DNA of 64,000 nucleotides. Source: an uncultured Hormoscilla sp. GTDB taxonomy: Bacteria > Cyanobacteriota > Cyanobacteriia > Cyanobacteriales > Desertifilaceae. The DNA is taken from the NCBI GenBank assembly GCA_963921275.4, contig OZ001293.3:5248001-5312000 (forward strand), read 5' to 3'. The notes under the pieces are model-generated. The model saw only the letters and a program-made list of their open reading frames with translations, did not search any database and had not been told where the DNA came from. Positions 1 through 35,612 of the stretch are shown piece after piece (positions within the stretch are counted from its first letter, which is position 1; each line of letters opens with the position of its first letter). The translations under genes were made by a program, and so were the position numbers.

Positions 1-496
1 GCTCTATCAGCCAGATAACTCTGGTTATCATGGGGTTTAAATTCCCCTTCCCCAGGTACGGGGGTCGAGGGTACTACCGGTCGGAGGTGCTGCGGAGTCA
101 CATCACCGTGGTGTGGAGCGAGGACTTAAATGTAGGATAACTGGCAGCCTAAGCCGGTGACGCCGCTAGGAAAGATGTTAATGGTTAGAACAAGCGAACC
201 TATGTAAACCTCGTTAACCAGAACCAGCGGAAGAAGGCTTATGCGCTTGCCCAAAAAGGGAAATGGTAGTTAGTATTAGCTCTTGCCTCTGGCTAATAAC
301 GTACTCAAAGAACTCTCGGGGTATAGTAGGAACCTAAAAGCATCGCGAAATGATACCAGGGAACGGAGTAACCTCTCGTGAGCTGTCCCCATTTGGACAA
401 GTTAGATGTAAAGCGCAAGCCACGAAGAGGAAGGATGTCCTAAGAAGCTAACGCCCGGGGTAATGCTTGTGGATATGCAGACGTAGGACGGATATA
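1..496 (+). mobile_element. Partial group II intron (domain I region); 5' end lies before the window, 3' part truncated
   Basis: Nearly identical to 20783-21277 of the full intron at 20738-21663; identity stops after GCAGACGTAGGACGGATAT. Confidence 0.85.
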
Positions 497-512
497 AAAC
501 TCAACTCCGTGG

Positions 513-568
513 CTGTGTCCCTTAACATGCATGAGACGATAGTATCTCATGCATGTTAAGGGACACAG
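513..568. repeat. 24-bp perfect inverted repeat with 8-nt spacer, probably abutted IS4 ends
   Basis: CTGTGTCCCTTAACATGCATGAGA-cgatagta-TCTCATGCATGTTAAGGGACACAG, directly upstream of an IS4 transposase start. Confidence 0.6.
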
Positions 569-724
569 GTTGCTTGCCCTTGACTGTTGTCTTGCTGTTT
601 TGGCTTTCCGGACCGGCCGTGAAAGAGATATCTGCTCCTTGCTCTTGTCCCAGGGTCCATGGCTGCGCCAGCCATGGCTCGCCACCCATGGCTGCGATAC
701 GCGCTAAAGCGATTGTCAATTCTC

Positions 725-925
725 ATGAGCAAAAGCCGAAAGACAAATAGAGACCATGGTAAAAAGACCCAACGCCCAATGGTTGAAGATGAGGTGGTGG
801 CAGAGCAGCTCGAAGCCTTACTAACTCCCGCCATCATCTCTCAAGAAGCCTATTATCGCCAAATGGGTTTGAGAGATAGAATACTCAACTTACCATTAAT
901 GGTTGCAGCTGTACTTGCTAGGGAA
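725..925 (+). pseudogene. IS4-family transposase N-terminal fragment
   Basis: MSKSRKTNRDHGKKTQRPMVEDEVVAEQLEALLTPAI...ILNLPLMVAAVL resembles cyanobacterial IS4 N-termini; ends at an intron insertion. Confidence 0.7.
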
Positions 926-1780
<855 letters not shown>

Positions 1781-2076
1781 AGTTAACTTCACAATGCATA
1801 GAGAAAGTGAAAACACTTGGGTCATGCTGGAAAATAAAAGCAGTACTGTCCTCGATGCACGTCTAAGTCTACAATTAAAATTTGGCGAACAAGCCCTATT
1901 TTTTACATAACCTGGGGGGCGATCGCCAGATGTTTAAAAATGCAGAAACCAGAATCATAGCTAGGAAAAGCATGATGAGTACCGCTAGCAGTATTGCAGG
2001 CCAAACTGTGATGCAAGGCTAATTGAGCTGTGAGAATCGTCCCTGGGCCTTGACATCGACTGTACTTTCATAGTAA

Positions 2077-2932
2077 GGTTGCACAATTACGGGATGATTT
2101 AACCAGATACAGGTATGAAATCATAACGTAAATAGTATAAAAGTAACTTAATTGAAAGCTTTAACATTTATTCGGATTTTGAGTAACACAATGTTTTTCT
2201 TTTTAAGCGAGCGAGATAATGTCTTAATCGACAGTTTTCACCTTCAACACGAGTCATGTATGTTTTACTCACTATCTGGTCAATATCTTCAATAAACTTT
2301 GGATATACTGACCAACCATCCGTCACCTAAAAAAATGATGCCTTTTATGATTTCTCACAATGGCTGTTTCTGCCGAACAGTCTCCTAAAGTCCATGCTAT
2401 AATTCCAGGTTGAAAATAATTCACAACTGTCCATAACCACTTTTTATTCTTTTTTTACCCACATAAGTATGTAACTCGTCAATCTCTGAAACCAAGGCGT
2501 ATATCATAGTTTTCGGGGAGAAAAGGCAAAGGTTTAGCTACTTGTTTTATCCAATTTATAACAGTATTATGCTTGACATCTGTGATTCTTTCAATTCCTC
2601 GCCGTTCCCATTAAGGTACATTTTTCGACAATTTTCTTTCACCTCTTTCGGATAACCTCGTGGAGAATAATATTCAATAAACTGGCGACCACAATTTTTA
2701 CAAAGGAAATTTTGTTTACCGCGCCGATGACCATTTTTATTGATTTGTTCAGAACCACATTGTGGACATTTCATATTCAACTCCTTGAAATCATATATCA
2801 GCCTTAATATCCATTATACCACTGATTGGTACTACTGGGTAAAATTAGCTTATACTGATTATAAATTTATGATAAGCTATTGCAGATTATCATAATCTGC
2901 AATAGCTTATCATCCCGTGATTGTGCAACGCC
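2077..2932 (-). mobile_element. IS1-family element, degenerate (InsA zinc ribbon 2556-2780, frameshifted InsB)
   Basis: MKCPQCGSEQINKNGHRRGKQNFLCKNCGRQF; InsB-like remnants; TIR GGCGTTGCACAATCACGGGATGAT with a degenerate copy at 2077. Confidence 0.8.
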
Positions 2933-2959
2933 AGCTCGTACATATGCTGGGGCATGGAC

Positions 2960-4510
2960 TAGTAGTCCACACCGCAAATATATCTGATAATATAGCTAGC
3001 CGAGGCAATAACTTGCGTCAGGATTGGCTGAAACCCTTGCCGGGCCATAATTTCAGTGGTGCTCCCTACCGCAATAAGAGCACAAATGTTGGCTAGTGTG
3101 TTATAATCACAGCTAAGTTACAAAAACACAAAACGAAAGAACATGGCCCGACCGACGAAACCGCTCAACCTCATGCCAGAACACTCCCGAACTGCTCTCA
3201 GGGATTGCCCGCAGTCGTGAAACGCCGCACAGGTGGTGCGGACACAGATTGTCCTGAAAGCGGCCGCCGGCGATAATAACAAAACGATTAGCCAAGACGA
3301 CATGTGGGAAGATCCTGTCGGTCTTTGGCGGAAGAGGTGGATAGAGGGTGCCCATGAGGACCGAAAAATTCGCGGGTAAGTCTAAAGAATTGCGGGTAGA
3401 TGTTTCCCCTTTTGTGCGACTACGATGTTTCCCCTTTTGTGCGATTAGCGCTCCCGGGAAACATCGAGCTCTCGGGAAACATCGTAGCGGATTGGCAAGC
3501 TAAAGGCAGACAAACCGCGCCCTGGAAGCCCTGGCATATTCAGGGCCGAGCAAGTGTGCCAAATCATTGCTACCGCTTGTGAAAAGCCGCCGGAATACCT
3601 GAGTCATTGGACGCGAAAAGAGTTGGTACACTCAACAGGATTGGCGAGGTATAGCAGAGGAGATAACACCTTCCACCGTCGGTCGTTTTTTAACATCAGG
3701 CAGACCTTAAGCCGCACCGTAGCAAATATTGGCAAAATCTAGAAGTCGAAAACGAAGCAGCTTTTCGGCCAAGAGGTAAGACTTGTGTGCAAGCTCTATC
3801 ACCAAGCCTCCTCGTTACACGCTCAAGGTGTACATGTGGTCAGTACAGATGAAAAGACCGGGATTCAAGCTAGAGAGCGTATTTATCCAACTCGGACAAT
3901 GAAGCCGGGCAAACCTGAAGCCGTAGAATTTGAATATCAATGGCACGGCACTCAAGCATTGATAGCTAATGGAAGAAGAGGCAACGGGCACTCGTTATCA
4001 GTTCCTCAGTAGGACTTACCCGCACCGAAGAAGACTTTGCAGCGCATATCCACTGTGGAAACTGACCCCCAGGGTCAACGGATATTTATTTGCGACCAAT
4101 TGAATACCCACAAAAAAGAAAGTCTGGTTAATCTTGTGCCTGAGTTGAGCGGCATTGAAGAGGCATTAGGTTTGAAGAGGAAGTCGGGTATTCTCCAAAG
4201 CATGGCTTCCCGTGCAGATTTTTGGCAAAATCGCTAGCCTAGCATCCGCGCAAGTGTATACTCCTAAACATTGCTCATAGCTCAATCAGGTGGAAAGAAG
4301 GTTTGGGATTTTGACTCATCGCTTGCGAGAGACGCAGCAACCTCACGCCGATGTCTCCCCCTTTGTGCGAGTAGCGCTCCCAGGAGACATCGAAGGTTGA
4401 AGAACTCATGCATTCGTATTCTCGCATTCATTGATTTCTTTAATGATACCTTAGCTAAACTGTTTCGCTGGACTTATATCGGTAAGCCGTTGCTCATCTA
4501 AGTTATCGGG
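2960..4510 (+). mobile_element. IS630-family element, degenerate
   Basis: MARPTKP...CEKPPEYLSHWT, VVSTDEKTGIQA and DQLNTHK fragments across frames; similar to 24474-26070 and 27450-29251. Confidence 0.85.
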
Positions 4511-4519
4511 GCGTTGCAC

Positions 4520-5110
4520 TTCTTCATCAGTAGCTGGCGTAGTTTTAACAGTTGGAGTGCCATCCATTTCTGTAATTAGAAGCTCTACTCCATCTATGAT
4601 TTCTTCTACTGTTTTTTGAGATATTTTAACCCTAGGTTTTTGGGTAATTGCTTGTGCTGAACTAACTGCAACAGTTATACCATAATGTTCTTGTAGCTTT
4701 TCTGCTTCCAAATGATACATCTGTAATTGCTCGTTGTAATGCTAAAGAATAACCCCGACAGCCGATGATGAAAAAGGTCGAATCACCTTTCCCGTTTTTA
4801 CGTAAAAATTTGCTCTATCACTTGTTCCAAACACTCTAGGCCAATATAGTTGTTTTTCTCTATGCATCGACTGAGATTGTTCACAGGTCTTAGCTTTTTT
4901 TTCTCTTGAGTCTTGCCCCAATCTTCAAGAGCCTCTTTTCCCATCTTTGGGAACTAGATGATAAGTTTTGACCGCCACAAGTATCATCGATTATTTCAAC
5001 AATATCCAACATGAAAAACCCTAAATGGGGATGTTCTTGTAATCGCTCTAACCCTGCTGCTAATCAATTGTTTCTTTTCTTCAGGGTTCATCAATTCCGT
5101 CATTATCTGC
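4520..5110 (-). pseudogene. Transposase remnant (ISKra4/UPF0236-like)
   Basis: EKLQEHYGITVAVSSAQAITQK...ELLITEMDG in fragmented frames. Confidence 0.5.
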
Positions 5111-5879
5111 TCAAGGGCTAAAGGAAAAACAACTGTGCAATGAGGCTAGTCTAAGTAAAAGTACTTTTTGGTACCGCGACAGACTGAGTTGCTGAAAGCC
5201 TGATTCTTGCCTTGAATCTAAGTCTGGTCAAAGTAGCAACTCTGACTTTTCAAACAACCTCTAAATCCTAAGTGGTTACATAGGCCAGAGATGAAACCCT
5301 TACCCAGTCAGGGTTTTATCAAGGGTTGCACAAGTACGCTCCGGCTTGCGAGGGGAAATTATATAACATAATGGTAAACTAACGAGAGGACATTTTTTTA
5401 GTGACACCCATTTGAATGTGGATTTCTCCCTCACCAGATGGTCCCCATCACAGACGGTTGAATTCCGGTTTCACCCAATGACATGAAAACTGTCCGGACT
5501 ATTGTGGAAAAAAAATCCAGTTTTTATTATCCATTTGATTTGTCCCATTCACCAGGAGGTCATCACGGGATGAATTTATCTGTCACCGGTCTTTCCGTGG
5601 CGTCCTGCTGGTCCGAGACTGACTTGACTCCCTGATATTTCCCTCACTCTGTCAGGCACCGGTTGATAAGGCCAAACTGTCACTGACCATTACACCCCCT
5701 CCGGCGTGTCCCAGACAGTGCGATTACGATGTCTCCCCTTTTGTGCGACTAGCGCGAGGCGTCTCCTCTTTTGTGCGAATACGATGTCTCCGGAGTAGTG
5801 CTTCTAGCGCTCTCCGAAGACATCGAGATCCCGGGAGACGCCTCGCCCCGGGAGACATCGAGCGTCCGAGACACGCCGC

Positions 5880-5927
5880 GGGCAAGAGCGCAACATAATC
5901 AGGGTGGTAAACTAGGCGCAAGTTCAT
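5880..5927 (-). pseudogene. 5' remnant of a histone-deacetylase-family gene, followed by short-repeat debris
   Basis: MNLRLVYHPDYVALLP resembles the N-terminus of cyanobacterial HDAC-family proteins; the rest of the ORF (to 5724) is repeat-derived. Confidence 0.5.
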
Positions 5928-5966
5928 CAGGTATAATTGTCAGCAGAATCAGCAGAATTTCTGAAA

Positions 5967-6281
5967 ATGTTTGACTTTCTCAATCCCATCTTAGGTTGTC
6001 ATCCCGATCACATCAAAGCCAACGTAGAAATATACACTTGGGCTAGCTGTCCCTTCTGCATCCGAGCCAAATTATTGCTCTGGTGGAAGGGAGTCAAGTA
6101 CCTTGAATATAAGATAGATGGCGATGCCGAAGCCAGAGACCGGATGGCAGACCGTGCCAACGGTGGCCGGACGGTGCCGCAGATTTTCATTAATAATCAG
6201 CATGTTGGCGGGTGTAATGAACTCTATCAGTTAGACGGAAAAGGTCAACTAGATCCCCTGCTAGCTAAGCTAGCCAGCTAA
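5967..6281 (+). CDS. grxC: Glutaredoxin 3
   Basis: CPFC active site, TVPQIFIN and GG motifs; ATG at 5967. Confidence 0.92.
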   Translation: MFDFLNPILGCHPDHIKANVEIYTWASCPFCIRAKLLLWWKGVKYLEYKIDGDAEARDRMADRANGGRTVPQIFINNQHVGGCNELYQLDGKGQLDPLLAKLAS

Positions 6282-6292
6282 AATTAGTAGGT

Positions 6293-6841
6293 ATGTTAAT
6301 TGCAGATCCAACCTATCAGGGACATCGGCGATGGATGAATCGGGCCCTAGAACTGGCCCAGTCAGCAGGTGAAGCAGGAGAAGTGCCAGTAGGTGCGGTG
6401 ATTGTGGACAGCGAAGGGCAGGCGATCGCCTCAGCATCGAACCGCAAAGAGAGGGACTTCGATCCCACGGCCCACGCGGAAATCATCGCCATTCGGGCCG
6501 CAGGGCAAGCTTTACAAAACTGGCACCTGAACCACTGCACCCTATATGTCACCTTAGAACCCTGTCCCATGTGTGCCGGGGCCATAGTGCAAGCCCGCCT
6601 TGGTCTTCTAGTTTATGGAGTTGATGACCCCAAGACAGGTGCCATTCGTACCGTTGTCAATATTCCCGATAGCGCTTGTTCTAATCATAGATTGCAGGTA
6701 ATAGCGGGAGTAATGTCCTCCCAATGTCGCCAGCAACTGCAAACTTGGTTTGCCCAACGACGGGGCAGGAAAAAGTCGGTACTGGTACAAGATGCCGATC
6801 GTGACAGTACAAGAACTGTCATTCAGATAGAAGAAAAATAG
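6293..6841 (+). CDS. tadA: tRNA adenosine(34) deaminase
   Basis: GEVPVGA, HAEI and EPCPMC motifs. Confidence 0.93.
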   Translation: MLIADPTYQGHRRWMNRALELAQSAGEAGEVPVGAVIVDSEGQAIASASNRKERDFDPTAHAEIIAIRAAGQALQNWHLNHCTLYVTLEPCPMCAGAIVQARLGLLVYGVDDPKTGAIRTVVNIPDSACSNHRLQVIAGVMSSQCRQQLQTWFAQRRGRKKSVLVQDADRDSTRTVIQIEEK

Positions 6842-6916
6842 CAGTAGCAAATTTAGGCTAAACGGGTAGTAGTTGGGAACCCCGATCTGCTTGGGCTCGA
6901 CTTTTCTCAACCAGCC

Positions 6917-7629: not shown

Positions 7630-8413
7630 TGGGTGTGGTCATGCATTAGTTAATAGGGTAGAGAATCAATGCTTCTGGACAGATGTTATAGTCATAATTT
7701 GACAAGACCAAACTGGTGCAAGACCGGACCCAACGCTAAGACCAATAAACCGGGTTTCTCTACAAAATTTGGCGCAACCCCCGCGATATCGGATTTGCGA
7801 AACCCGGTTTCTGGCCCCGACGCGAGGGCCCCCCGAATTACCAACTGATTTTGACCACACCCGTTGTTATAGTGAGCCTAAATTATTTGTGTAAAGATTC
7901 TGGGTAATCAGCGCCCAAACCCTTGCGGGGTAATAATTTCAGCAAACACCTATTGCACAACTCATTACTCCTTCGAGAAATTGATGGTATCGCCGAGGAG
8001 TGGGGAGTGGGGAGATAAGATCGGGGGAGGGTGCGATTCGTTCCCTTACCTTGGACTGGGCGAGCGGGTAGGGCCGGGCTAGTTTCCATTGCCTTAAGAG
8101 TTGCCTTGATAACTGTAGGAGACTGGCATTCTGCTTGCAGGAGACTTGTAATCGGATTAGAGAACAAGTAGATAACAAGTCTCCTACAAGTCGAGAACAA
8201 GTTATATTTAAAAATTAACGAGTTTTCAGAGGTTTTCGATATTTTTCTCTATACTGTAATATATTTTTCTCTATCTTGCGATCTGCTTTTTAAGTTAGGG
8301 GGTAACTCCGATAATTGTCAGCACCACATTTTATAATACAATGAATTACACATAACACAAAAATTAGGAATTATGCATATTACAATGTAATCTGATCTAG
8401 AGGCGATCTATGC

Positions 8414-8647: not shown

Positions 8648-10651
8648 CTACGATCGCTGTCCGAGTAACTTCTCTCGCAGCTGCTTGAGGCGATCGCGAT
8701 ATTTGGCCGCTTTCTCAAACTCCAGATTCTTTGCAGCTTCCTTCATCTGTGCTTCCAACTGGGTAATCACTTCGGGAATTTGTTCTAAGGACAGATCGGA
8801 CACCGGTTCGGAAACTGCTTCTAACTCCCGCACATTCAAGCGCCGGGAAACATCCAGAAATGCTAATATCGCATTACTGGATTTCTTCACAATCGGTTGG
8901 GGAGTAATTCCTTGCATCTTATTATATGCCATCTGAATCCCTCGCCGCCGATCGGTCTCTTCTATGGCCCGCTTCATGCTATCGGTGAGAATATCTCCAT
9001 AGAGGATCGCTTGTCCTCTGACATGACGGGCCGCGCGACCGATTGTTTGGATCAGAGAACGTTCGGCGCGCAAAAATCCTTCTTTATCTGCATCCAAAAT
9101 TGCGACCAGGGAAACTTCTGGTAAATCTAACCCTTCCCGTAACAAGTTGACGCCAATTAGCACGTCAAAATTACCTGACCGCAAATCCTGCAAGATTTCA
9201 ATCCGTTCAATTGATTGAATCTCGGAATGCAGATAGCGCACCCGAATTCCTCTCTCTTCCAGATAGTCCGTTAAATCTTCCGCCATCCGCTTGGTGAGAG
9301 TTGTCACTAACACCCGTTCCGACTTTTCCACCCGGTCTTTAATCTCCCCTAGCAAGTCGTCAACTTGACCTGCTGTGGGACGTACAAATATTTCCGGGTC
9401 AGTCACCCCTGTGGGTCTAATTACTTGTTCGACCACGCCATCTTGGGAAATTTCCAGTTCCCAATCTCCTGGGGTCGCTGAGACAAATATACATTGATTC
9501 ACCTTTTCCCAGAATTCCTCTGCTTTCAGAGGACGGTTGTCAGCGGCGCTGGGAAGACGAAACCCATATTCTATCAATACCTGCTTCCGAGACCGATCGC
9601 CATTGTACATCCCCCGAATTTGCGGTACAGTAACGTGAGATTCATCCACGACTAATAACCAATCTTTGGGTAAATAATCAACCAAACATTCTGGGGGTTC
9701 CCCTGGGTTCCGTCCTGCTAAATGGCGGGAATAGTTCTCCACGCCGTTGCAAGTCCCCACCTCAGACAGCATGTCGATATCGTATTTTGTCCGCTGTTCT
9801 AGACGCTGGGCTTCTAATAATTTACCAGCATGTTCTAATTCTGTCAACCGCCGTTGTAATTCGGCTTTTATCGCCTCACAAGCAGCTTCCAGTCGGTCGG
9901 CGGGAGTGACGAAGTGACGCGCCGGGTAAATATTTACAGCCTCCAGATTCTGGATATTTTCACCGGTTACGGGGTCAACATAGAGAATAGCGTCTATTTC
10001 ATCCCCAAAGAATTCTACTCGAATGATGCGGTCTTCGTAAGCGGGTCCTATTTCCAGGACATCCCCTTTGACCCGGAATTTTCCCCGACCTATGTCTATA
10101 TCATTGCGGCTATATTGGATCGTAGCTAAATCTCGTAGCAGTTGACGTTGGTCTATTTCCGATCCTATCATGAGGGGAATGGAAGCTTTCAGATATTCTG
10201 CGGGAATTCCCAATCCGTAAATGCAACTGATGGAGGCGACGACTATGACATCCCGCCTTTCAAACAGCGATCGGGTGGCGGAATGGCGCAGCATGTCAAT
10301 CTCATCGTTAATGGACGCGGTTTTTTCGATGTAAGTATCGCTGACGGGAATGTAAGCTTCCGGTTGGTAATAGTCGTAGTAGCTGATGAAATATTCAACA
10401 GCATTATGGGGAAAAAATTCGCGCAACTCGTTACATAGCTGGGCGGCGAGGGTTTTGTTGTGGGCCAGAATTAATGTCGGTTTGCCGATTTTTTCAATAA
10501 CGCAGGCCACCGTGTAGGTTTTCCCCGTTCCCGTCGCCCCCAACAGGGTTTGGTAGCGGTTTCCCCCTTGGATGCTGGTGGCTAGTTGCGCGATCGCCTC
10601 TGGTTGGTCTCCCGTGGGTGCAAATGGTGCTTGGATCTGAAATGGTGTCAT
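8648..10651 (-). CDS. uvrB: Excinuclease ABC subunit B
   Basis: [12 protein letters not shown] and GRAARH motifs plus C-terminal UVR coil; likely start [10 protein letters not shown] at 10651, since the longer ORF runs into intron sequence. Confidence 0.97.
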
Positions 10652-10927
10652 AACTGGTAGTTTAATGTGCGATTCGTTCCGGCGTAACTGGACACCAGGT
10701 TCAGGATAGCTGGGTGGGGCAACCCACAACTCAGACGTTATGAGGGTTAGATTCCCGTGCGATTCGTTCCGACGTAACTGAGTAATCAGGATAGTCGGGT
10801 GGGGTTTAAACCCACAACTCAGACGTTATGGGGGTCAAATTCCCCCCTCATGTACAGGGGTGACACCGGTCGGAGGTGCTGTGGAGCAACATCACCATTG
10901 GTGCTAAACGAGGACAAATGTAGGATA

Positions 10928-11939
10928 ACCTAAGTTGCGACCTATTAAAAAAAATATGAATTACCCACTTAGACTTTACAGATATTTGGGATATTTCGTA
11001 GCTTTTGATACAAAATTATATTTTTTTTGTGCTAGACGGCGGGTTGGCTGTTTATAGGTTATAATGTACTAAAATAATAGTTAATTGCTGGGGGATGTAG
11101 ATGATGGAAGATATGATTACAACAATTTTTGTTCTTTGTGACGAGCTACTAAAAGCGTTAAATATAAAAGAAGATCCACAAGTAAAAATGAACAATGCCG
11201 AAGTGATGACAGTCGGATTAGTTGCTGCATATTTTTTCGGAGGACACCACGATCGCTCTTGTCAATTTATGGTCCAACACAAGTATATAAAAAATCTGTT
11301 AAGTAAAAGTAGGTTCAATCGTCGATTACACAATATTGAGGAACCAATTTGGATGTTTTTCTTCCAAGTTATAGCTCAAACATTTAAAGAGCTCAATCCG
11401 GGTCAAGAATATATTCTTGATAGTTTCCCGGTGCCAGTATGTGATAATATTAGGATTGATAGATGCCAAATTTATAACAAGGAAGAATATCGAGGGTATA
11501 TTGCCAGTAAAAAACGTTATTTTTATGGATTAAGAGTTCATATGTTGGTAAACAAAAATGGAAAGCCAATAGAATTTTATCTAGATCCTGGTAGTTATAA
11601 TGATGTTAAAGTTTTGCAATCTTTTGGCTTTGACTTACCATCAAATTCAATAGTTTATGGAGATAAAGCTTATAATGATTATCAATTAGAGGATTTACTA
11701 AAAGAGTCGTCAAGTATAATGTTAAAACCTTTGCGAAAAAAGAACTCAAAAAGAAAAGAATATTCTTGTTTTGAATATATACAAAAAGTAACAAGAAAAC
11801 AAGTTGAAACCTGTTTTAGTCGAATCACAAATTTGTTTCCCAAGTCAATTCATGCTGTTACATCTAAGGGATTAGAGTTGAAAATAATTCTCTTTATCAT
11901 AGCTTTTTGTATCCAATTTTTATAGGTCGCAACTTGAGT
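10928..11939 (+). mobile_element. IS982-family element, copy 1 (1012 bp)
   Basis: TIRs ACCTAAGTTGCGACC / GGTCGCAACTTGAGT; 7-bp TSD TAGGATA at 10921-10927 and 11940-11946. Confidence 0.93.
11101..11925 (+). CDS. IS982-family DDE transposase
   Basis: ILDSFPVPVC, YFYGLRVH, YGDKAY and RKQVET motifs; intact 274 aa. Confidence 0.92.
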   Translation: MMEDMITTIFVLCDELLKALNIKEDPQVKMNNAEVMTVGLVAAYFFGGHHDRSCQFMVQHKYIKNLLSKSRFNRRLHNIEEPIWMFFFQVIAQTFKELNPGQEYILDSFPVPVCDNIRIDRCQIYNKEEYRGYIASKKRYFYGLRVHMLVNKNGKPIEFYLDPGSYNDVKVLQSFGFDLPSNSIVYGDKAYNDYQLEDLLKESSSIMLKPLRKKNSKRKEYSCFEYIQKVTRKQVETCFSRITNLFPKSIHAVTSKGLELKIILFIIAFCIQFL

Positions 11940-13667
11940 TAGGATAGCTTCCAGCCCTGAGGAGGTAACGCCGCTAGGAAAGATGTCCAGGGTTAGAACA
12001 CGCAAATCCTTGTAAGGGTCGTTAAACCAACCGGTGAAATAAGGCTGATACACCGGGCACAAAAGTGCAAAGCAGTTAGAGCTAATGCTGAGAATTCATT
12101 AGTTTTGTACACAAATAACTACTGGCCTAAAGAGGAGACCTAAAGACATCGTGAAATGACGTTTGGGAACGAAGTAACCTCCGTGGTTCTGTCTCTAGGG
12201 ACCAGTCAGATGTGAAGCGCATGACCGCGTGAGGAGAGATGGCCCGAGAAGCCAATGCCTAGGGTAATGCCTATGGATATGCAGACGCGGGTCGGTGATA
12301 GTAGGAAATCTCAGGAGAAAGTAGCTCTCTAAATGTACTAAGCCAGTGGCAACACTAGGAAGTAATGATGGACTAAAATCCTAACCAGGTAAAAACTTGA
12401 TGCCCCCAAGATATGGGCCCTGTTAGTAAAGAGCGGTTTAAGTGGTTTTTTTTCCAGTTCTCCCCCGCAAACCTTCCGGAGTTAGGTAATCAATTGGTTC
12501 ATCGACCAACCAAAAGGAGTAAAATTTCATGAGATAAGGGACAACGGGAGTAATCTCTAGTAATCCTACCCGTGACAAGGCCCTACTACCCAGTAGCCGG
12601 ATGCGGTGAAAGTCGCTCTTTAGGTTCCGAATGGGAGGGTTGGGGAGCGATTCCTAGCTTGACCCCTAATTTCCCTCATGTACAGGGGTGACACCGGCCC
12701 ACCGTTCCGGAAAAATCGGTGCTGTGGAGCAACATCACCATGGTGCTGAGCGAGGGCAAATGTAGGATAGCTTCCAGCCCTGAGGAGGTAACGCCGCTAG
12801 GAAAGATGTCCATGGTTAGAACAGGCAAATCCTTGTAAGGGTCGTTACCCAGAACCGGTGAAATAAGGCTGATACACCGGGCTCAAAAGTGTAAGCAGTT
12901 AGGACTAATGCTGTTGAATCATTAGTTTTGTACACAAACAACTGCCGGACTATAAAGGAGACCTAAAGACATCGTGAAATGACGTTTGGGAACGAAGTAA
13001 CCCCCGTGGCTCTGTCCTTATGGACCAGCGAGATGTGAAGCGCATGACCACGCTCTTAAGGATGGCCTAAGAAGCAAATGCCTGGGGTAATGCCTAGGAT
13101 ATGCAGACGTAGGTCGGTGATAGTAGGAAATCTCAGGAGAAAGTAGTTCTTATATGTGTTAAGCCAGTTCGCAAGAACCAGGAAGCAATGTGGATTAAAA
13201 TCCTAACCGGGTAAAAACATGGAAGCCCCTCAGATATGGGCAATGTTAGTAAAGAGTGGACCCAGGGTTTATCCTGTTATCCTCCATGAAGCTTCCGGAG
13301 TTAGGTACTCAATTAGTCTAGTTGACTGACCAACAAGGAACAAAATTTCATGAGACAAGGGACAACGGGAGTAATCCCTAGTAATCCTACCCATGACAAG
13401 GGCCTATTACCCAGTAGCCGTGTGCGATGAAAGTCGCTCTTCAGGTTCCGAATGGGAGGATTGGGAAGCGATTCCCAGCTCGACCCCTAACATGGATGCA
13501 TCCCAATCTAGCGGCTCGGAGTCTCCGGGAGCGCTACTCGCACTTCTCGGGGGACTCCGGCGAAGCATTCGGATATTAAATTTGTCGATTTATCCCATAA
13601 GCGATCCGCCCGAATGCTTCGCCCCTACAGGTTAATTTGTATAAATGGGATGCTCCCGTTTATTATT

Positions 13668-13880: not shown

Positions 13881-13892
13881 TTAATCTCCTCC

Positions 13893-14856: not shown

Positions 14857-16064
14857 TCACTCCTCTGTCGATAGCCAGTCTTCTAACTTGAGTCCCGGAA
14901 CCCGCAGCATGTCGGAATCGTGAGAAACTAGAGTCAAGTCACGGGCGATCGCCGTTGCCGCGATTAAAATATCTGTATCCTCTAGCAGAGTTCCCTTACC
15001 TCTTAAATCTGCATGAATTAATGCCGCGCTTTCGATTATCTCGATTTCATCTAACAATGCCACGGTAACCGCTTCGCAAAAGCTATTAAAATCAGACAGT
15101 TTCCTGGTAGCATTGGCATACAACAAGCCTCTCTTGGTCTCATAATAGCTGATAATGTGCGATGAGTTCTAGCCTAACGTAGTCAAACGCGGAACGCTAG
15201 CCTAGGAAACTAGTAACTCTGGTATTCATGGGGGTTAAATTCCCTCTCCCCAAGTACGGGGGTAACACCGGTCCTCGGTACTGCGGGGTAACATCACCGT
15301 GGTGCTAAGCGAGAACTTAAATGTAGGATAGCTGGTAGCCTAAACCGGTAACTCCGCGCTCTCAGATGTCCAAGGTTAGAACAAGCAAACCTATGAGAGC
15401 CTCGTAACTATTAATCGGCGAAATAAGGCTTTATGCGCCGGAGACAAAAGTCACTGTAGTTAGTGTTAGTTGTATTATCTGGCTAACAACGTACTCAAAT
15501 AACTACCGGGGTGTAGTAGGAACCTAAAGGCATCGCGCTCCGGAGACCAGGGAACGAAGTAACCCCTCGTGGGCTGTCCAACTGGACCAGTCAGATGTGA
15601 AGCGTATGCCACGAGAGGGAGCCCAAGCCTGCCCTCAAGAAGCTAATGCCTGGGCGGTGTCTGGAGCCTGCCGAGTCCTTCAGGACAAGAGCATGCGGAA
15701 GACGCCGAGTAATGCCCGGGATACGCCGACGTGCGGTGAGGGTGGGTGATAGTAGGAAGTCTCAGGTAGAAAGTAAATCTGAAAATGTTATGAACCCTTC
15801 ACTATAGGTGATGAGGTATAGATGTAAAGGAGCAAAATCGCATGGGATTTGTCGCGAGTGCCGATATGCCTAAGGACAAGCCCCAGCGGTGAAAGTCGCT
15901 CTTTAGGTTCCGAACGGGAGGGTCGGAGGGTGACTTCCGGCTCGACCCCTAATACTTATATACAGCTTTTCTCCCCAAAACTTCGCCTCCTCTATTTTCT
16001 CTCTAATTTTTTCATCATTCTTCAAATGAGCCGCGATAATCTTCGTATCTAGCAGATAACTCAT
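14857..16064 (-). pseudogene. vapC: VapC/PIN toxin split by an antisense group II intron
   Basis: MSYLLDTKII...KLYIS (16064-15954) joins in frame to IISYYETKRG...DILIAATA..LVSHD (15156-14857). Confidence 0.88.
15157..15953 (+). mobile_element. ORF-less group II intron (797 nt) with degenerate DV
   Basis: GTGCGATGAG start; ends CTCGACCCCTAAT; EBS1 ATTATC / IBS1 GATAAT and EBS2 CTATTA / IBS2 TAATAG pair perfectly. Confidence 0.92.
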
Positions 16065-20737: not shown

Positions 20738-21663
20738 GTGCGATTCGTTCCGGCATAAGCCAGTAGGTGAAAGTCGGGTCTGGCTCTATCAGCCAGATAA
20801 CTCTGGTTATCATGGGGGTTAAATTCCCTTTCCCCAGGTACGGGGGTCGAGGGTACTACCGGTCGGAGGTGCTACGGAGCCACATCGCCGTGGTGCCTCC
20901 CGAGGACTTAAATGTAGGATAACTGGCAGCCTAAGCCGGTGACGCCGCTAGGAAAGATGCTAATGGTTAAACAAGCGAACCTATGTAAACCTCGTTAACC
21001 AGAACCAGCGGAAGAAGGCTTATGCGCTTGCCCAAAAAGGGAAATGGTAGTTAGTATTAGCTCTTGCCTCTGGCTAATAACGTACTCAAAGAACTCCCGG
21101 GGTATAGTAGGAACCTAAAAGCATCGTGAAATGATACTAAGGGAACGAAGTAACCTCTCGTGAGCTGTCCCCATTTGGACAAGTTAGATGTAAAGCGCAA
21201 GCCACGAAGAAGAAGGATGTCCTAAGAAGCTAACGCCCAGGGTAATGCCTGTGGATATGCAGACGTAGGACGGATATGGTAAGACACCCTTGGGAAAAGT
21301 AACCTTAATGTCACAGAACTAGGGAGAAATTCCGAAAGTACGAATTTTGGATTCAAATCTTAGCCAGGTAAAGTTCAGAGCCCTTACGAAAAGCGGAAAG
21401 CAGAATGGGGAAGATGTTAGTAAAGAGCGGCGAGTATGGTTTGCTGAACTATCCTCCGCGAACCTTCCGCAGCTCAGTACTTAAACGGTCCAATAGGATT
21501 GACCATAAGGGGTAAAATTTCAAAGGGTAAGGGACAACGGGGGTAACCCCCAGTAATCCTACTGATGACAACAGCTTACCAACCAGTAGCCGTGTGCGGT
21601 TCCAGTCGCTCTTCAGGTTTCGCTCTTGGAGGGTTGGGGAGTGATTCCCAGCTCGACCCCGAC
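20738..21663 (+). mobile_element. ORF-less group II intron (926 nt)
   Basis: GTGCGATTCG start; ends CTCGACCCCGAC; EBS1 TGCCTC vs exon GAGGGA (5/6). Confidence 0.9.
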
Positions 21664-21699
21664 CAAATCATGCTCCCTTGATAGGGAACATGATTTTTG

Positions 21700-27829: not shown

Positions 27830-28277
27830 TAGTGTGTTATAATTACAGCTAAGTTACAAAAACACCGCTCGCTCAAGAACATGGCTCGACCAACGAAACC
27901 ACTCAACCTCATGAGAGAACAAAAGAAACTGCTCGAAGGGATTGCCCGCAGTCGCCAAACACCGCACAGCTTGGTGCTACGGACACAGATTGTCCTCAAA
28001 GCCGCCGCCGGCGATAATAACAAAACGATTAGCCAAGACTTAGGCTTGTGCGAAGATACTGTCGGTCTTTGGCGGAAGAGGTGGATAGAGGGTGCCCATG
28101 AGTTAGAACAGTTCGCGGGTAAGCCCAAAGAATTGCGGATTCTAATTGGCAAGCTAAAGGCAGACAAACCGCGCCCTGGAAGTCCCGACATATTCAGCGC
28201 CGAGCAAGTGTGCCAAATCATTGCTTTGGCTTGTGAAACGCCGCCAGAATACCTAAGTCATTGGACGCGAAAAGAGT

Positions 28278-28740
28278 AGACATGTCCAAAATATAATTTT
28301 TTGCTATAATTGGAGGTCAAAATTTTATTTATGAGTCGATAAATATGAGTTATATTTGCCGTTAAAATTGCCAATAATCTAAATAAATGCTTATTATCAG
28401 CTCGTAATAACGCTCAATTGAGTAAATAAGCTGAATAAATGGTAATCACCGCAAATGTTTCAGCTTTTTTATGGCGCATTTATTCTCGAATTACTACATC
28501 TATTGGAGTCAGTTATTGCTCTAAGTTGTTGGCTAGGACTAATTGTGTATGGTGCCTGGGTTTCAGATATATTATAATTTGGCGATTGCTCTTAAAAAAT
28601 TGAGTTTAATCAATACTATTTTTGCTTTGTTGACAGTAAATACATCAAACCCTGATTTATTCGTGTAAGTAACATATGTGATAAAATGAGGTGGAGATTA
28701 AAACCCAGACCTGGCAAAGGTTTTATTCTTGGACAGGTCT
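28278..28740 (+). mobile_element. Non-autonomous ISL2/IS5-like MITE
   Basis: TIR AGACATGTCCAA / TTGGACAGGTCT resembles 16410-17441; 3-bp TSD AGT; empty site at ~3619. Confidence 0.8.
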
Positions 28741-29251
28741 AGTTGGTACACGAAACTATCAAGCGAGGTATAGCAGAGGAGATAACACCTTCCACCGTCG
28801 GTCGTTTTTTAACATCAGGCAGACCTTAAGCCGCACCGTAGCAAATATTGGCAAAATCTAGAAGTCGAAAACGAAGCAGCTTTTCGACAAGAGGTCAGAC
28901 AAGTGTGCAAACTCTATCATCAAGCCGAGTCGTTGCACACCCAAGGTGTACATGTGGTCAGCACAGATGAAAAGACTGGGATTCAAGCAACCGAGCGTAT
29001 TTACCCGACTCGTCCGATGAAATCGGGCAAACCAGAGGCAGTAGAATTTGAATATGAACGGCACGGCACTCAAGCATTGATAGCTACTTCTGAAGTGGCA
29101 ACGGGCAAAGTTATCTGTTCGTCAGTGGGACCTACCCGCACGGAAGAAGATTTTGCAGCGCATATCCGCGCCACTGTGGAAATAGACCCCCAGGGTCAAT
29201 GGATATTTATTTGCGATCAATTGAATACTCACAAATCCGAAAGTCTGGTTA

Positions 29252-29437
29252 ACGGGACTTTGAGAAAAAATAGGCGTAAAATGGCATCAAACCCTTTCAC
29301 AGAGCCACAGTGGGGTCGAGCTGGTCTCGCTCAACCCAGGCGAGCGGGTTTGCTGCCTATGAATTTCCTTCGACGTAAAACCCACACCCCGTAAGCTAAG
29401 AAGCCGTTTTTTGCCTGAGAAAATCTCAAAGTCCCGT
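29252..29437. mobile_element. MITE (ACGGGACTTTGAGA...TCTCAAAGTCCCGT)
   Basis: 14-bp TIR at the junction between two IS630 pieces. Confidence 0.7.
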
Positions 29438-30206
29438 ATAACAAACTAGCCATCATTTGTGCTAGAATGGCACTCAGCTGCACCGCTGAAATCATTGTCC
29501 TGCAAGGGTTTCCGCCAAGCCGAATTTTCGAGGTGCCTCTGTCAACTATATTATCCGATATATTTGCGGCCTGGTGTACTAGTATACACCCTCTGGAGCG
29601 AAAATACTTCACCAACCCTAGGAGACCTCCTGCGTTGTGCAATAGCTTTGAGAGCTGAAATTATTATCCTGCAAGGGTTTGAGCTGTGTCCCACCCCGAA
29701 GAAAAACACAAGTGCCAGCTTGAAAGCTATCTATTTTCAATAAGCTGTCTCTATTGCAGTGAGCAGTTACCACTTCGATGTCTCCTGGGTAGTAGTCTAT
29801 CAAGATTGAGTTGACAGATGAAGAACGGTATAGCAGTCTGGAATTAAGTAATCCGGCTCTTCGGTACAAAGCAATGGTATTTTATCAAAAAAATAAGGTT
29901 GTAAGCCTTGCGCAGCAAGGCGAGGGAGCCCCTTAGCATACATTCGGAAAATGGGTTAATCAATTCGCCCCTAGCCTTACACTGCAAGGCTTTCGGCGGT
30001 TTTTAACTATCAATTTAGCGCTCCCAAGTATCGAAGACCCAGTAATCCTTGTATCGGTTGCAGGGTAAGGGTCAGAATCAATAATGGGGAGAGATTCGAA
30101 TCGGATCTCGAGAAGACGATTATTAAGAATATCCTCCACTATTGACAATCCCTGCTGATTATATTATTACCCATGATACTGCCCATGGCTTTTTATTCAC
30201 AAAAAA

Positions 30207-32524
30207 ATGCCTAAATATTAGTACATTGTCGCCCTTATACCATTTTGGAAAAACAATGCTACAATTAGTTAAAGACCTAAATAGGAGGAAGTATGGCCGG
30301 CGTAGTTAAGATAGAAATTATCGAATCTAAATAATACCTTCAAAAATTGCTATCCCGAACCACCGGTGATAAGAAAGAGCGAGTACAAGCTTTATACTGG
30401 CTAAAAATTGGGGTCGTAGAAACAACTGAACATATTGCTGTTCTTTTAGCTTGTCATCGGACAACCGTATCTCGTTGGTTGACAATTTATCGAGAAGATG
30501 GTTTGGAAAAATTATTAGAACAAAAAAAAAGCCCCGGACGGCCCCGTTTAATACCCGAAGAAGCCCTAGAATCTCTCAAAAAGGAATTGTCGGAACCAGA
30601 AGTGTTTAATAGCTATGGAGAACTTCAGTTATGGTTGAAAATATTTGGGGAGCTAGATTTATCTTATTGGACAGTATATGAATGGGTTCATTATCGACTT
30701 AAAGCAAAGTTAAAAACTCCGAGGCCAAGACATATTAAACAAATTCCAGGTAGAATATAAACAGTTAAAAATGAGTTGCCAAATGTGCTAAAATCAGCGG
30801 TTTAAAGGATTAGAGCTTGGTCTAATCCTCAGAAATAAGTCAGGTTTTGGTGTCAAGATGAAACTCGACTGGGTTTAATGACACGGTCGCCACTCGGAAA
30901 GGAGTAAAACCTATACAAACTGAACAATTGGAATTTAAGTATTTTTGGCTTTATGGTTTAATTGAACCACGATCAAGGGAGCATTTTTTATAGGAATTTT
31001 CCCATTTAGATACAATTTGTTTTGAAAAATACTTAGAGTTATTTTCCCAAGATTATCCTAATGAACTACATATTATCCAGGCGGACAATAGCGGAGCACA
31101 TCAAGGCTCAACCCTTTCAATACCGTCAAATATTATTTTAATTTTTCAACCATCATACTCTCCAGAAGTTAATCCAATAGAAAGATTGTGGTTGGAAATC
31201 AAAAAGCAATTAAAAAGATGAGAATGGTTCAAAGACTTGGACGAATTGCGTCAAATTTTGAGTAGGATATTAGGATAATTAAGCAATCACGCTGTTGCAT
31301 CTTTAAGTAAATGGGGATTTATTGTCGATGCTTTATGTGTAGCAAACATATAGCAAAATGGTATTACTCCAGAAGAACGGGAGCATCTAGAGCAAGTAAA
31401 AAAAGGTAAAACTGCTGCCTATAAGATTAACCACGCACGGATTCTGCTTAAAGCAGATATCAATCAAGAAGGTTTAGCAAGACCAAAATATTAGTAACGC
31501 ACTAGACATAAGTGTTTCGACAATTGAACGAGTCCGCAAACCCTTTGTCGAAATTGGAATAGAATCAGCTCTTGAGCGTAAACCTCAACAAAATCACAAA
31601 GAATCTTGTCTGGAGAAAAAGAAGCTTATTTAATTGCCCTTACTTGTAGGGAACCACCTCCCGATGTCACTTGACAAGGGTGATTTAATAAGATATCACC
31701 CTTGTCAAGTGACACCGCCAGGACAAGCTCCCTGGACCTTACCTCTCCTGCCAGACAAGATGGTGGAAGTTGAATATGTCGAGAGCATCTCTCATGAAAC
31801 TATCAGACAAACGCTAAAAAAAATGATTTAAAGGCTAAATGAATCTTGGGTAATTCCCCCTGACTTTGTTTGCCAAATGGAGGAGGTAATAGAAGTATAC
31901 CTCAGACCTTACGACTCTCAAAATACTGTCGTATGTTTTGAGGAAAGTAATAAGCAGTTAGTTAAAGAGACTCCCACTCCTTTACCAATGAAACCCCCTG
32001 GCGTTGAAACGGACAAATCTGGAGTTAATGAACGGTATGATTACGAGTACGAGCGAAATGGAACCTGTAATATGTTTATGTTTTCAGAGCCTCTAGCTGG
32101 TTGGCGTCATGTAGAAGTTACGGAGAGAAGAACTAAGAAAGATTACCCTAAACCAATGAAATATTTAGTCGAGCTTAAATGATGATCAAAAAATTACGGT
32201 TGTTCAAGACCAACTGAATACTCATGTACCTAATTCTTTATATGAAGCTTTTGAGCCAGCGTCAGCCAAGAGAATTTTAGATAAACTAGATTTTCATTAT
32301 ACCCCCAAGCATGGTAGTTGGCTCGGCTGAAATTGAATTGAGTGTTTGAGCTCGTCAATGTCTTGACCGTCGAATTCATGACATTGAGTCTTTAATCCGA
32401 GAGATAGAGGCCTGGGAAGAATTACGAAATCAAGAGAGTCGTAAGAGCTCCTGGCAATTTACAACAACTGATGCTCGGATAAAGCTCAAGGGTCTTTACC
32501 CATCAATTCAATCTTGACTGACTA
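30207..32524 (+). mobile_element. IS630-family element, degenerate, host to a second IS630
   Basis: IVAL|TPEEREHL joins across the insert; ARILLKAD, YDYEYERNGT and YTPKHGSWL motifs. Confidence 0.78.
30238..31363 (+). mobile_element. IS630-family element, degenerate
   Basis: TIR TACCATTTTG / CAAAATGGTA; HTH ORF 30347-30760; QDETRLG and PYSPEVNPIERLW motifs. Confidence 0.82.
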
Positions 32525-32696
32525 GTAGTGCGAGTAGCGCTCCCAGGAGACATCGAAGGTCGGAGAACTCATGCATTCGTATTCTTGCATTCATTGATTT
32601 CTTTAATGATGCCTTAGCCAAACCGTTTCGCTGGACTTATATAGGTAAGCCGTTGCTCATCTAAGTTATCGGAGTCATTTGTGGTGTGGTCTACTA

Positions 32697-34677
32697 GGGT
32701 TTTCACTTTAGGGGGATTTTCCCCCGAGAAGTTCATGCACATTCTGTGTTAAGCATCGCCCCGTGAAAAACGGCTCGACGCTTTGCCAGGGGGAGAGGCC
32801 AAAGACCTGACGATACCAATCGGAAACCGCAGCAAACGAGACTGTTTCCAGGGCTATAGAGATCAGCTCAGCCGTCAACTTAGTGGTGAGGAGGGGCAGG
32901 GCATCTGCGTAGGAGGAGACGAAACATTAGGAGGCTTGTGCGATTCGTTCTAGCCTAACGTGGTCAAACACGGAACGCTAGCCCGGTTTCATTAGCCGGG
33001 AACTCTGACCGCATGGGGGTTAAATTCCCCTCCCCCCAGGTACGGGGGTGACACCGGTCCTCGGTGCTACGAAGCGACATCATCGTGGTGCTAAGCGAGG
33101 ACTCAAATGTAGGATAACTGGCAGCCTAAGCCGGTGACGCCGCTAGGAAAGATATCCAAGGTTAGAGCAGGCAAACATGTGCAAGCCTCGTTATAAGGAA
33201 CCAGCGAAATAAGGCTATATGCGCTGGCCTAAAAAGGAAATGGTAGCTAGTATTAGTTTTAGACTCTGGCTAATATAGTACTCAAATAGCTCCCGGGGTA
33301 TAGTGTGGACCTAAAGGTATCGCGAAATGTTGTTAGGGAACGAAGTAACCTCTCGTGTGCTGTCCATCAGGACAAGTTAGATGTTAAGCGCAAGCCACGG
33401 GGGGAGGGATGGCCCAAGAAGCGAATGCCCGGGGTAATTCCTGGGATAACATCTACAGTAATGTAGATGATGCTGGGTAGCCAGCGCTGACGTGGGTCGG
33501 TGATACTAGGAAGCTGCTGGAATGAGTAATCCTAAAAAGCCACGGAACTAATCCGAAACGCAAGTGGAGGATAAGGTATGGATAACTGGTAAAACTGACT
33601 TGAAAATGGTGATACTAACGGTTATCAGAACAACCACTCGCTAAACCAGGAAAGGGAAGAAAAGACAGGCGGCAAGGGCTAACGGAAGTAATTCCTATTA
33701 AGTCTACCTATGAAAAGGGCCTAGTACCCAGTAGCCGGATGCGGTGAAAATCGCAAGTCCGGTTCCTCAAGGGAGGGTCGGGAAGCGATTCCCGGCTCGA
33801 CCCCATCCACCCATTTTGGTGATGGTGGAATTGAGAGCGTGGCTACATTTTCACGCCTTGTCGAAAGTGACAATCGTACCTACGAAACGTGGCAACAGCA
33901 AATTCAATCGTGGTGGACGAACGGCGGGATGGCACTGTCACTTCATGGTCAGTGATGGAGCTTTCATCACTGATTAAACTGGCCCTAGAAGGCTTGAGCT
34001 GTACTGAGTTCTTCCCTCTCACAGCTGCGTTCCCTGGCGATGCGCTACGGCATCAACAAAGCCCAAACCGCCATTGATACCTTTGAACGACACATTCCTT
34101 CCTTTGCTGAAGGAATTCATGCTCTTGTGCGCTGGGTCAGCGAAGCGTTCCATGCCAAAACTGACGATTTAGAGTTGCAGCAGTGGGTGGTGGAACTTTT
34201 GTTGCCCTGGGCCTATTGGCATCAACAAGCAGACAAAACTAGACAAAAATGACTCAAACTTGTCTATCAGGTGGCTGCGGAGCAAGCCAAGGAGCGCTTG
34301 CTTGCTCACCCTCTCACTCAACAATTAGAGGCGGCGAAGCATCAACAGTGGGTAGAGTGGGCAAACTGGATCGCTCTTAAATATCAACGCACCACCTCAG
34401 CCGTGGAAGGGCGCAATGGCTATTTGTCTGGTATCCATCATAGCTCTCGCGGTTTCTCTGTTCAAACCTTAGCCCTGCTTACCCTCATCCACAATTTTGA
34501 CATCAGACGAGCGGATGGTAGCACGCCTGCACAAGGAATATTTGGGCATTCTTTTCCAAATCTCTCAGAGTGGGTGGTAGACCATATGGGTGAACTCCCC
34601 CGACCACGACAGTCATCTTTAGCACAACCGCTGAATCCCTTACCCAGACTGACTGTCCCGGCTTAAGTTGGTAGCCC
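32697..34677 (+). mobile_element. DUF6399-type transposase-like element, degenerate, containing a group II intron
   Basis: GGDET..L|PILVMVEL, FMVSDGA and YQRTTSAVEGRNGYLS fragments; end TTAAGTTGGTAGCCC. Confidence 0.7.
32938..33808 (+). mobile_element. ORF-less group II intron, sense orientation in its host
   Basis: GTGCGATTCG start; intact DV AGCCGGATGCGGTGAAAATCGCAAGTCCGGTTC; removal restores TTA CCC ATT TTG (LPIL); 3' terminus mutated. Confidence 0.88.
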
Positions 34678-34735
34678 GTACCGCCGCAGAGGTTGCCCTG
34701 GCAGAGATAGGATCACTTCTAACCTATCTGGTAAT

Positions 34736-35612
34736 GTGCGATTCGTTCAGGCGTAAACTGGCGACGGTGAAGTCTGGTCTGGTTTCATTTGCCGGATAAC
34801 TCTGGTTATCATGGGGGTTAAATTCCCTCTCCCCAGGTGTGGGGGGTCGAGGGTACTACCGGTCCTTAGTGCTGCGGAGTCACATCGCCGTGGTGCTCCG
34901 CTAGGACTTAAATGTAGGATAGCTGGCAGCCTAAGCCAGTGACGCCACTAGTAAAGATGCTCATGGCTAGAACAAGCGAACCTGTGTAAGCCTCGTTAAT
35001 AGGAACCAGCGGAATAAGGCTTATACGCTGGCCCAAAAGGGAAATGGTAGCTAGTGTTGGTCGTATTGTCTGGCCAACATCGCACTCGAATAGCTCCCGG
35101 GGTATAGCAGGGGCCTAAAAGCATCGAGAAATGATACCAGGGAACGAAGTAACCTCTTGTGTGCAGTTCGGCTCAACGGGGCCGAACCAGTTAGATGTAC
35201 GTCCGCGTAGCGTGCGCGCAGCGCATAGCGCAAGCCACGAGGGGAGAGATAGCCCGAGAAGCTAATGCCTAGGGTAATTCCTATGGATAAGTTGAGGACT
35301 GCCTCAACATGCAGACGCGGGTTGGTGAAAGTAGGAAATCTTGGGAAAAAGTATCTCTAAGAAGCCCCGAAACCTCTAGAAGGTGGGATGACTGGTAAAA
35401 CAGAGAAAAGAAAAATGGTAATACTTAAGGTTATCTGGCAGCGCCACTTACCAACCAGGAAAGGGGAGAAATCTCGTGAGATGAGGGACAATGGGAGTAA
35501 TCCTTAATAATCCTAGCAATGACAATGCCCTGCTTCCCAGTAGCCGGATGCGGTAAAGAGAGTCCGGTTCCGAATGGGAGGGTTGGGGGGTGACAATAGG
35601 CTCGACCCCGAC
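34736..35612 (+). mobile_element. ORF-less group II intron (877 nt) with damaged DV
   Basis: GTGCGATTCG...CTCGACCCCGAC; EBS1 ATTGTC / GGTAAT and EBS2 ATAGG / CCTAT. Confidence 0.9.

Follow-up and report, generated by a model that had tools for sequence, protein, structure and literature searches.

The DNA considered here is a window of 64,000 nt from an uncultured Hormoscilla sp. (G000:C1:5248001-5312000, G000 being the source genome, with an assembly of 7.03 Mb), Hormoscilla being a genus of sponge symbionts (PMC6520454). A first-pass annotation of its first 35.6 kb had described eight related group II introns, none with a reverse transcriptase (RT) open reading frame (ORF) and each with exon-binding sites (EBS) suited to its own target, and had proposed that they form a natural library of retargeted elements served by an RT encoded elsewhere. 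Local BLAST and inspection of the sequence place all eight elements where they had been reported and resolve them into seven complete ORF-less introns of subgroup IIB2 and one truncated copy, with no RT ORF in any of them. As argued below, they very probably belong to a lineage that spreads by retrohoming with the help of a protein made by other introns.

The introns of the window

The leftmost element (1..495, plus strand) is the 5' part of a truncated intron and comprises domains I (DI) to III (DIII). It had been given as 1-496, but its start lies outside the window, approximately 45 nt ahead of base 1, and it breaks off near 495; it is without domains V and VI (DV and DVI) and has the family and EBS1 of the copy at 20738. 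A complete intron of 856 nt follows on the minus strand (925..1780), a member of an 8-copy family with canonical DV, the 3' end GACT, EBS1 GGTTAG at 1452-1447 and 12 of 13 guide pairs. All further copies are on the plus strand. Two of these form a twintron, in which the outer intron (10667..13491, own length 911 nt; EBS1 GTTGAA at 12913-12918) has a mispaired DV with a TCTTCAGG patch and is interrupted in domain I by an inner intron (10757..12670; EBS1 GAGAAT at 12090-12095, its pairing read by eye) with a mispaired DV of its own (TCTTTAGG patch). The inner intron measures approximately 895 nt once an insertion sequence (IS) is subtracted, which lies on the plus strand at 10921..11939 (approximate limits) and contains a DDE transposase ORF (11101-11925).

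The 797-nt intron at 15157..15953 (EBS1 ATTATC at 15474-15479) combines 13/13 guide pairs with a doubly aberrant DV, and is inserted antisense in or beside a PIN-domain reading frame. The next (20738..21664, 927 nt; end GACC; EBS1 TGCCTC at 21065-21070) is one of a 16-copy family, and its domain V (21588..21620, plus strand) shows three mispairs below the bulge, a UC bulge and a loop that reads UCCA instead of GAAA, all common to its near-identical siblings. The intron at 32938..33808 (871 nt; canonical DV; end ATCC; EBS1 AGACTC at 33261-33266) belongs to a dominant family of 145 copies, and the last one (34736..35613, 878 nt; end GACT; EBS1 ATTGTC at 35065-35070) again has 13/13 guide pairs, together with a disrupted upper DV stem.

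EBS1 differs in all seven complete copies, as had been claimed, and its reported fit to the 5' exon also holds, at 6/6 in four copies, 5/6 in two and 4/6 at 32938, the last being one loose insertion of the 145-copy family, for which AGACTC does agree with the consensus of the targets. The very high density noted earlier is real even for an intron-rich genome, since seven introns per 35.6 kb, against a genome mean of 2.1, rank in the top 1.4% of windows. Two features had passed without remark, namely the transposase element in the inner intron and the mispaired domain V of five of the seven complete copies. It is because of the latter that only two copies reach the gathering threshold in an Rfam scan of the window, and not all window copies need be active integrators, most of them having an aberrant catalytic domain.

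Classification and boundaries

A consensus fold of 58 full-length representatives recovers domains I-VI, with most helices 89-100% paired and with compensatory changes in DI, DII, DIII, DIV, DV and DVI. The hallmarks of group II introns are present, that is, 5' GUGYG, a bulged branch A in DVI and the gamma-gamma' pair, and DV has the AGC triad, 2-nt bulge and GNRA loop in 292 of the 360 ORF-less copies found in the genome, the other 68 having mispaired stems or an altered loop. Subgroup IIB2 is recognised by a characteristic 5' end and by two stem-loops inserted into the base of DI (PMC4649490; PMC8643678). The introns studied here start with GUGCGAUUC, have two hairpins at the DI base in 4/4 copies folded, possess an unpaired EBS2 without a stem as well as EBS3, and have no linker between DIII, which ends at 561, and DIV, which starts at 562; judged by sequence and predicted fold, they belong to IIB2.

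Group II introns end by consensus in AY. This rule is broken in the 402 ORF-less-type ends (ATCC 147, GACT 111, GACC 71, TAAT 46, TAAC 3), most copies ending in CC or CU, and the position of the end is set by covariation at gamma and EBS3. Most of the boundaries proposed earlier stand, while three 3' ends, of the GAC type, move outwards by 1 nt, to 925 (minus strand), 21664 and 35613, because the final base of the intron is the one that covaries with the gamma base of J2/3, and the base after it the one that pairs with EBS3.

A start-like motif at 8031 was considered as a further intron and rejected, since no intron body follows it. Some copies carry an 8-nt insertion in domain I that creates GGGGTCGAG, complementary to the branch-point strand CTCGACCCC of the same intron; the sites are 822-839 (approximate; 1660-1677 for the minus copy), 20843-20858 and 34843-34858, and the motif is also found at 61-69. 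Domain II of the 34736 intron contains an inserted short hairpin repeat (35201-35228) of the CGTAGCGTGCGCGCAGCGCAT type, a word that is approximately 20-fold over-represented in the genome; GCGATCGC occurs approximately 4,700 times. The repeat resembles the small dispersed repeats of cyanobacteria.

Guides covary with their targets

Covariation was scanned with one representative of each of 50 families (one badly aligned row was dropped), comparing every intron column with every exon position for Watson-Crick pairing, 15,750 pairs in all. The top 14 pairs (z 4.6-9.3, the next best being 3.2) are exactly those of EBS1, EBS2, EBS2a, EBS3 and gamma, and the match between guide and target is therefore not due to chance. 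EBS1 covaries with exon positions -1..-6, EBS2 with -9..-13, and a nucleotide two positions before EBS2 with -14. The second variable patch does pair, as the first-pass annotation had it, with the exon upstream of IBS1, the intron-binding site (IBS) of EBS1, but EBS2 is 5 nt long and covers -9..-13 only, and -14 pairs out of register with EBS2a. The EBS2a-IBS2a pair at -14 is RT-dependent and required for DNA integration (PMC8643678). A one-base shift in the register of EBS2, known for IIB2 introns, is seen at 20738 and is the best fit in about a fifth of copies. At the 3' junction an apparently new pairing of intron base 369 with exon +2 (z 6.2) was rejected, because it is EBS3 seen with a 3' boundary one base short; the second 3'-junction pair is gamma with the true last intron base, and the two are Watson-Crick in 339/351 copies.

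With the ends corrected, 58 families, each represented by a randomly drawn copy, were compared with 1000 shuffles, 351 of the 360 copies being alignable. Tabulated genome-wide in this way, introns pair with their own sites at 10.03 of 13 Watson-Crick positions against 3.98 +/- 0.25 when shuffled, a value that 0/1000 shuffles reach, and EBS1, EBS2, EBS2a and EBS3 are each significant alone (0/1000 shuffles). At least 10 pairs are formed by 81% of copies with their own exons and by 2% with the exons of other families, and EBS2a is paired with -14 in 83% against 33% in shuffles. The guide columns are also the most variable of DI, with a nearest-neighbour divergence of 62% compared with 9.8% elsewhere (46 pairs).

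Copy number and recent spread

Profile searches of the genome gave 493 starts, 478 ends and 406 complete introns, about 60-90 partial elements being left unparsed. The complete introns span 6.3% of the chromosome and comprise 360 ORF-less copies, none with more than 100 aligned residues of RT similarity, and 46 introns with RT-lineage ends and a different DVI, 42 of which do show more than 100 such residues. The ORF-less lineage falls into 66 families at 95% DI identity. The proposed library of retargeted guides is thus genuine in that there are 58 guide sets, but it is uneven, with 219/360 copies in the two largest families (145 copies at 125 distinct targets and 74 copies at 63). Variation in these two is star-like, with 63/144 copies identical; the bursts are very recent, and these two families are the latest. 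Contig depth on the introns is more than 200 times that of unique DNA (two runs).

The lineage occurs in 4/4 same-genus genomes, whereas 7/26 others match short pieces only, mostly DV. A strict DV pattern is found 292 times in G000 against 1, 21, 28 and 28 times in the same-genus genomes, three of these four assemblies being fragmented. Fourteen runs from other studies (X5-X18) hold 40-62% of the words of window positions 32700-34200, about the share of the intron, and an 885-nt contig of X5 is identical to the 32938 copy, so the dominant family is not confined to this sample.

Introns are also targets. Forty-eight are nested in other introns, among them 26 ORF-less copies inside RT-type introns (12 antisense), and 19 of the 46 RT-type introns are interrupted (for example at G000:C1:1056960 and 2406679). 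Insertion of ORF-less copies into helper introns could act as a brake on the burst.

A candidate helper protein

Pfam returns 93 RT matches in the genome, and the main RT has the domains RVT_N, RVT_1, GIIM and HNH. After removal of nested introns 24/46 RT-type introns have an ORF of at least 560 aa with YADD, and 12 are uninterrupted, the nearest of these 194 kb from the window. The best solved relative of the protein is the Thermosynechococcus elongatus CL1 maturase 6ME0 (E 2.5e-109; the comparison included no labelled CL2 reference), and the closest named relatives are Hormoscilla records at approximately 70%. An RT encoded elsewhere, as the first-pass annotation supposed, is therefore available, but it comes from a distant clade whose introns are not the parents of the ORF-less ones. 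A DI tree of 75 rows splits the RT-bearing from the ORF-less introns as two clades (100/100, on a long branch; bootstrap not fully converged); they share approximately 66% identity over approximately 280 nt of DI, and their DIV and DVI differ. No RT-bearing parent of the ORF-less introns, and no RT ORF with a 3' end of the ORF-less type behind it, was found in G000 or in the loci examined in its relatives. It is likely that the RT/maturase/HNH protein would be supplied in trans by this second, distant intron lineage of the same chromosome; recent spread, EBS2a pairing and the 12 intact RT introns make mobilisation by the resident RTs the simplest reading.

A 2,302-nt group II intron also lies within the tag frame of the only transfer-messenger RNA (tmRNA) gene (G000:C1:1777698-1775397, minus strand). 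Once it is removed, ARAGORN calls a normal tmRNA with the tag ANNIVPFARKAAAVA. The 600-aa intron protein has YADG in place of YADD and is likely to be a maturase only. A literature search found no bacterial precedent for a group II intron in tmRNA.

Host genes

In-silico excision places 76 of 314 top-level ORF-less copies in ORFs of at least 300 aa (24% compared with 39.5% of random sites), 41 in sense and 35 in antisense orientation. Annotation covered 40 of the 61 sense, single-copy hosts. Sense hosts include eno (enolase), zwf, prfC, recJ, the B12 ribonucleotide reductase gene, ribD and glutamate synthase, and all but the last have no close second copy. Excision restores the reading frames of these hosts, so splicing is likely needed.

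Within the window the twintron is antisense, approximately 16 nt upstream of the likely ATG of uvrB (8648-10666, minus strand), and these 2.8 kb may separate uvrB from its promoter. The gene for B12-dependent ribonucleotide reductase (G000:C1:849548-851947) contains a group II intron and an intein together. The disruption of lysA by an aberrant copy was rejected, the host being a stop-containing lysA-like paralogue while the true lysA is intact. Apart from the introns, the window has a single match to Rfam CRISPR-DR28 (54307-54330, minus strand).

Introns with a mispaired domain V

Multi-base lesions of DV are of four kinds and are found in 68/360 copies, at 65 distinct flanks. Outside the two big families the aberrant share is 48% of 141, and several lesions can combine, up to three in one copy. 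Those in the stem change the DV folding energy from about -14..-17 to -5..-10 kcal/mol, while the AGC triad and basal pairs are retained, precise junctions are kept and the branch motif is kept in 25/26 families. Family 2, which includes the 20738 copy, has three lesions, and the patch is present in 16/16 complete carriers of its guide hairpin. Twelve of its copies differ by 0-3 nt from the modal sequence and sit at different flanks, which points to the aberrant RNA itself as their template. The evidence for the patch allele comes from the assembly, from one contig end in reads and from two other genomes (G003 and G004), which carry it at one shared locus; it is therefore old and not an assembly error. 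Among 1,319 tests no compensating change was found in DI (zeta and kappa regions); only the gamma region associates with aberrant DV, probably by linkage.

An origin of the patches from a word over-represented throughout the genome was rejected, ratios outside introns being 0.6-1.65. In 9/15 patch families the patch CGCTCTT matches, as an exact reverse complement, a motif of domain IV located 222-244 nt from the 3' end; in the window the two lie at 21420-21432 (motif) and 21607-21613 (patch). This complementarity (predicted 7 bp) could reflect either a template-switch origin or an inhibitory pairing.

Probable retrohoming in trans and its alternatives

Taking as observed the anatomy and boundaries of the introns, their guide-target covariation and copy numbers, the absence of RT ORFs from them and the presence of intact RT introns, we consider it very probable that a IIB2 lineage of approximately 360 ORF-less copies, with guides complementary to its own sites, has spread by retrohoming with an RT supplied in trans. 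The intron RNA would splice to a lariat, use its structured domain IV to bind the helper protein, reverse-splice into DNA matching EBS1, EBS2, EBS2a and EBS3, and be copied by target-primed reverse transcription. Changes in the guides would open new sets of targets and so lead to bursts, of which those of 145 and 74 copies would be the latest, and copies with canonical DV would be likely to splice well enough to occupy single-copy core genes. Several points weigh against this reading. The helper lineage is distant, and its recognition of the ORF-less introns is assumed. Individual targets are loose (mean 10.6/13 with G-U pairs, range 3-13), EBS2a is Watson-Crick in only 163/286 canonical copies in fixed register, and the family representatives are related, which makes the shuffle tests overstate independence. 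For the RT-type introns themselves EBS1 did not beat shuffles (1.33 vs 1.75; n=12 families), probably because that loop is misaligned by a profile built on ORF-less copies; EBS2 passed in the same 12 families. Splicing cannot rescue the genes hit by the 35/76 antisense copies, and neither spliced junctions nor lariats nor empty sites were observed, the RNA run X19, from another strain, sharing only 5% of words, showing no splice joint and so giving no evidence either way. The deep split between the two lineages would also fit a cognate RT-bearing parent as helper, now lost, unassembled or confined to part of the population, and both the unparsed partial elements and the existence of a few divergent RT remnants (30-43% identity) leave room for one. 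We think this improbable, as the bursts are very recent, no RT ORF with the appropriate 3' end was found in G000 or the loci examined in relatives, and the only other full-length RT is the YADG protein in tmRNA. That the copy number stems from DNA duplication, IS hitch-hiking or misassembly is scarcely credible: 4/16 family-2 copies do share an IS site and 48 introns are nested in others, but this is largely refuted because the flanks are distinct (125 for 145 copies, 65 for the 68 aberrant ones) and guide-matched, and read depth fits a high copy number; the patch allele also occurs in two other genomes.

The aberrant copies allow more than one interpretation. On balance we favour their being weakened, protein-dependent ribozymes that still retrohome and are not tolerated in housekeeping genes. 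They might instead be dead, having inserted as normal introns and been rewritten later, unless splicing was essential, by gene conversion among the approximately 400 copies. Such conversion would explain why 0/10 sense aberrant copies lie in housekeeping genes compared with 5/9 sense canonical copies of minor families (p=0.011, with post hoc categories), why each guide set of family 3 has its sole canonical copies in zwf and an NlpC/P60 gene, and why carriers of the TCTTYAGG patch are dispersed across the DI tree; indeed, one chimeric copy and polymorphisms common to several guide sets show that conversion occurs. However, the assembly holds no canonical donor for family 2, all of whose hairpin carriers are patched, and only 1/16 of its copies contains a conversion tract; its 12 near-modal copies match the 145-copy family in their young age, and in that family no copy has been converted; DI and DV patches occur together in 13/13 aberrant copies of family 3, with no partial state. 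Conversion is accordingly a possible but less likely explanation. Domain V can act in trans in vitro, and a further reading is that the mispaired introns use the domain V of abundant intact intron RNA, as a natural counterpart of the U6 small nuclear RNA. Independent multi-base lesions have accumulated while guides, branch motif and junctions were kept, guides pair as well as in canonical families (10.2 vs 10.0 Watson-Crick pairs), no compensating column emerged in DI, and there are more than 290 canonical copies as possible donors. The AGC triad and basal pairs are nevertheless kept, as expected if DV still works in cis, and rescue by the maturase explains the same data more simply, which makes the use of DV in trans improbable.

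Relation to known systems

Were retrohoming with a domain V supplied in trans true, it would represent a still-living intermediate form that links self-splicing introns to the spliceosome. Independently of this, the genome is a resource of approximately 400 copies, in which the in vivo targets of 58 natural guide sets can be read (as many as 125 sites for one set); with them come a distant candidate helper, core genes whose function would depend on splicing, and DV variants open to testing. It also provides data on the looseness of RNA-guided targeting that bear on targetron design. A literature search found no paper linking Hormoscilla with group II introns, and the word 'intron' is absent from the main text of PMC6520454.

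With 406 complete introns the genome exceeds published maxima of 101-150, although counting methods differ. Arthrospira platensis NIES-39 was reported to have at least 150 introns, 79 without RT (PMC2853384), and Arthrospira, with 101, was the highest among 1,790 representative genomes (PMC8919778). Like the present organism it is a filamentous cyanobacterium with a large load of CL-type introns and many ORF-less copies; complete introns are approximately 2.7-4 times more numerous here, by counts made in different ways, and 89% are ORF-less. No published count above that of Arthrospira was found, and the per-genome supplementary tables of PMC8919778 could bear on a claim to the record. Trichodesmium erythraeum (IIB2 intron Tr.e.I7) shares IIB2 features, ORF-less introns in genes and twintrons; 17 introns splice in vivo there (PMC4649490), whereas here there are approximately 20 times as many, with splicing predicted from restored reading frames. 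The EBS2a-IBS2a interaction agrees with that of IIB1 and IIB2 introns in its position at -14, its Watson-Crick covariation with all four combinations, and its one-base shifts (PMC8643678), but is here recovered from the ORF-less paralogues of a single genome.

The closest parallel is T. elongatus, in which ORF-less introns (TeI3) outnumber RT-bearing ones (TeI4), EBS divergence gives families with new targets, twintrons form and a helper RT acts in trans (PMC2882425), the last being what we propose here. Its 28 introns are IIB1, fall into six EBS families and are all 85-100% identical; the ORF-less copies keep ORF remnants, and DV mispairing is treated as impairing (PMC2882425). The genome studied here has at least 406 introns and 58 guide sets, its ORF-less introns are IIB2, and its mispaired-DV families are multi-copy. 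Whereas the T. elongatus copies arose by ORF deletion from a resident RT intron, the ORF-less introns here form a separate clade, at approximately 66% DI identity to the helpers, with no RT remnant detected and with ends that are mostly CY. Collectively, the mechanism is a known one, and what is new is its scale, a likely helper from a distant lineage, introns whose ends depart from AY, and families that appear to be mobile with a defective domain V.

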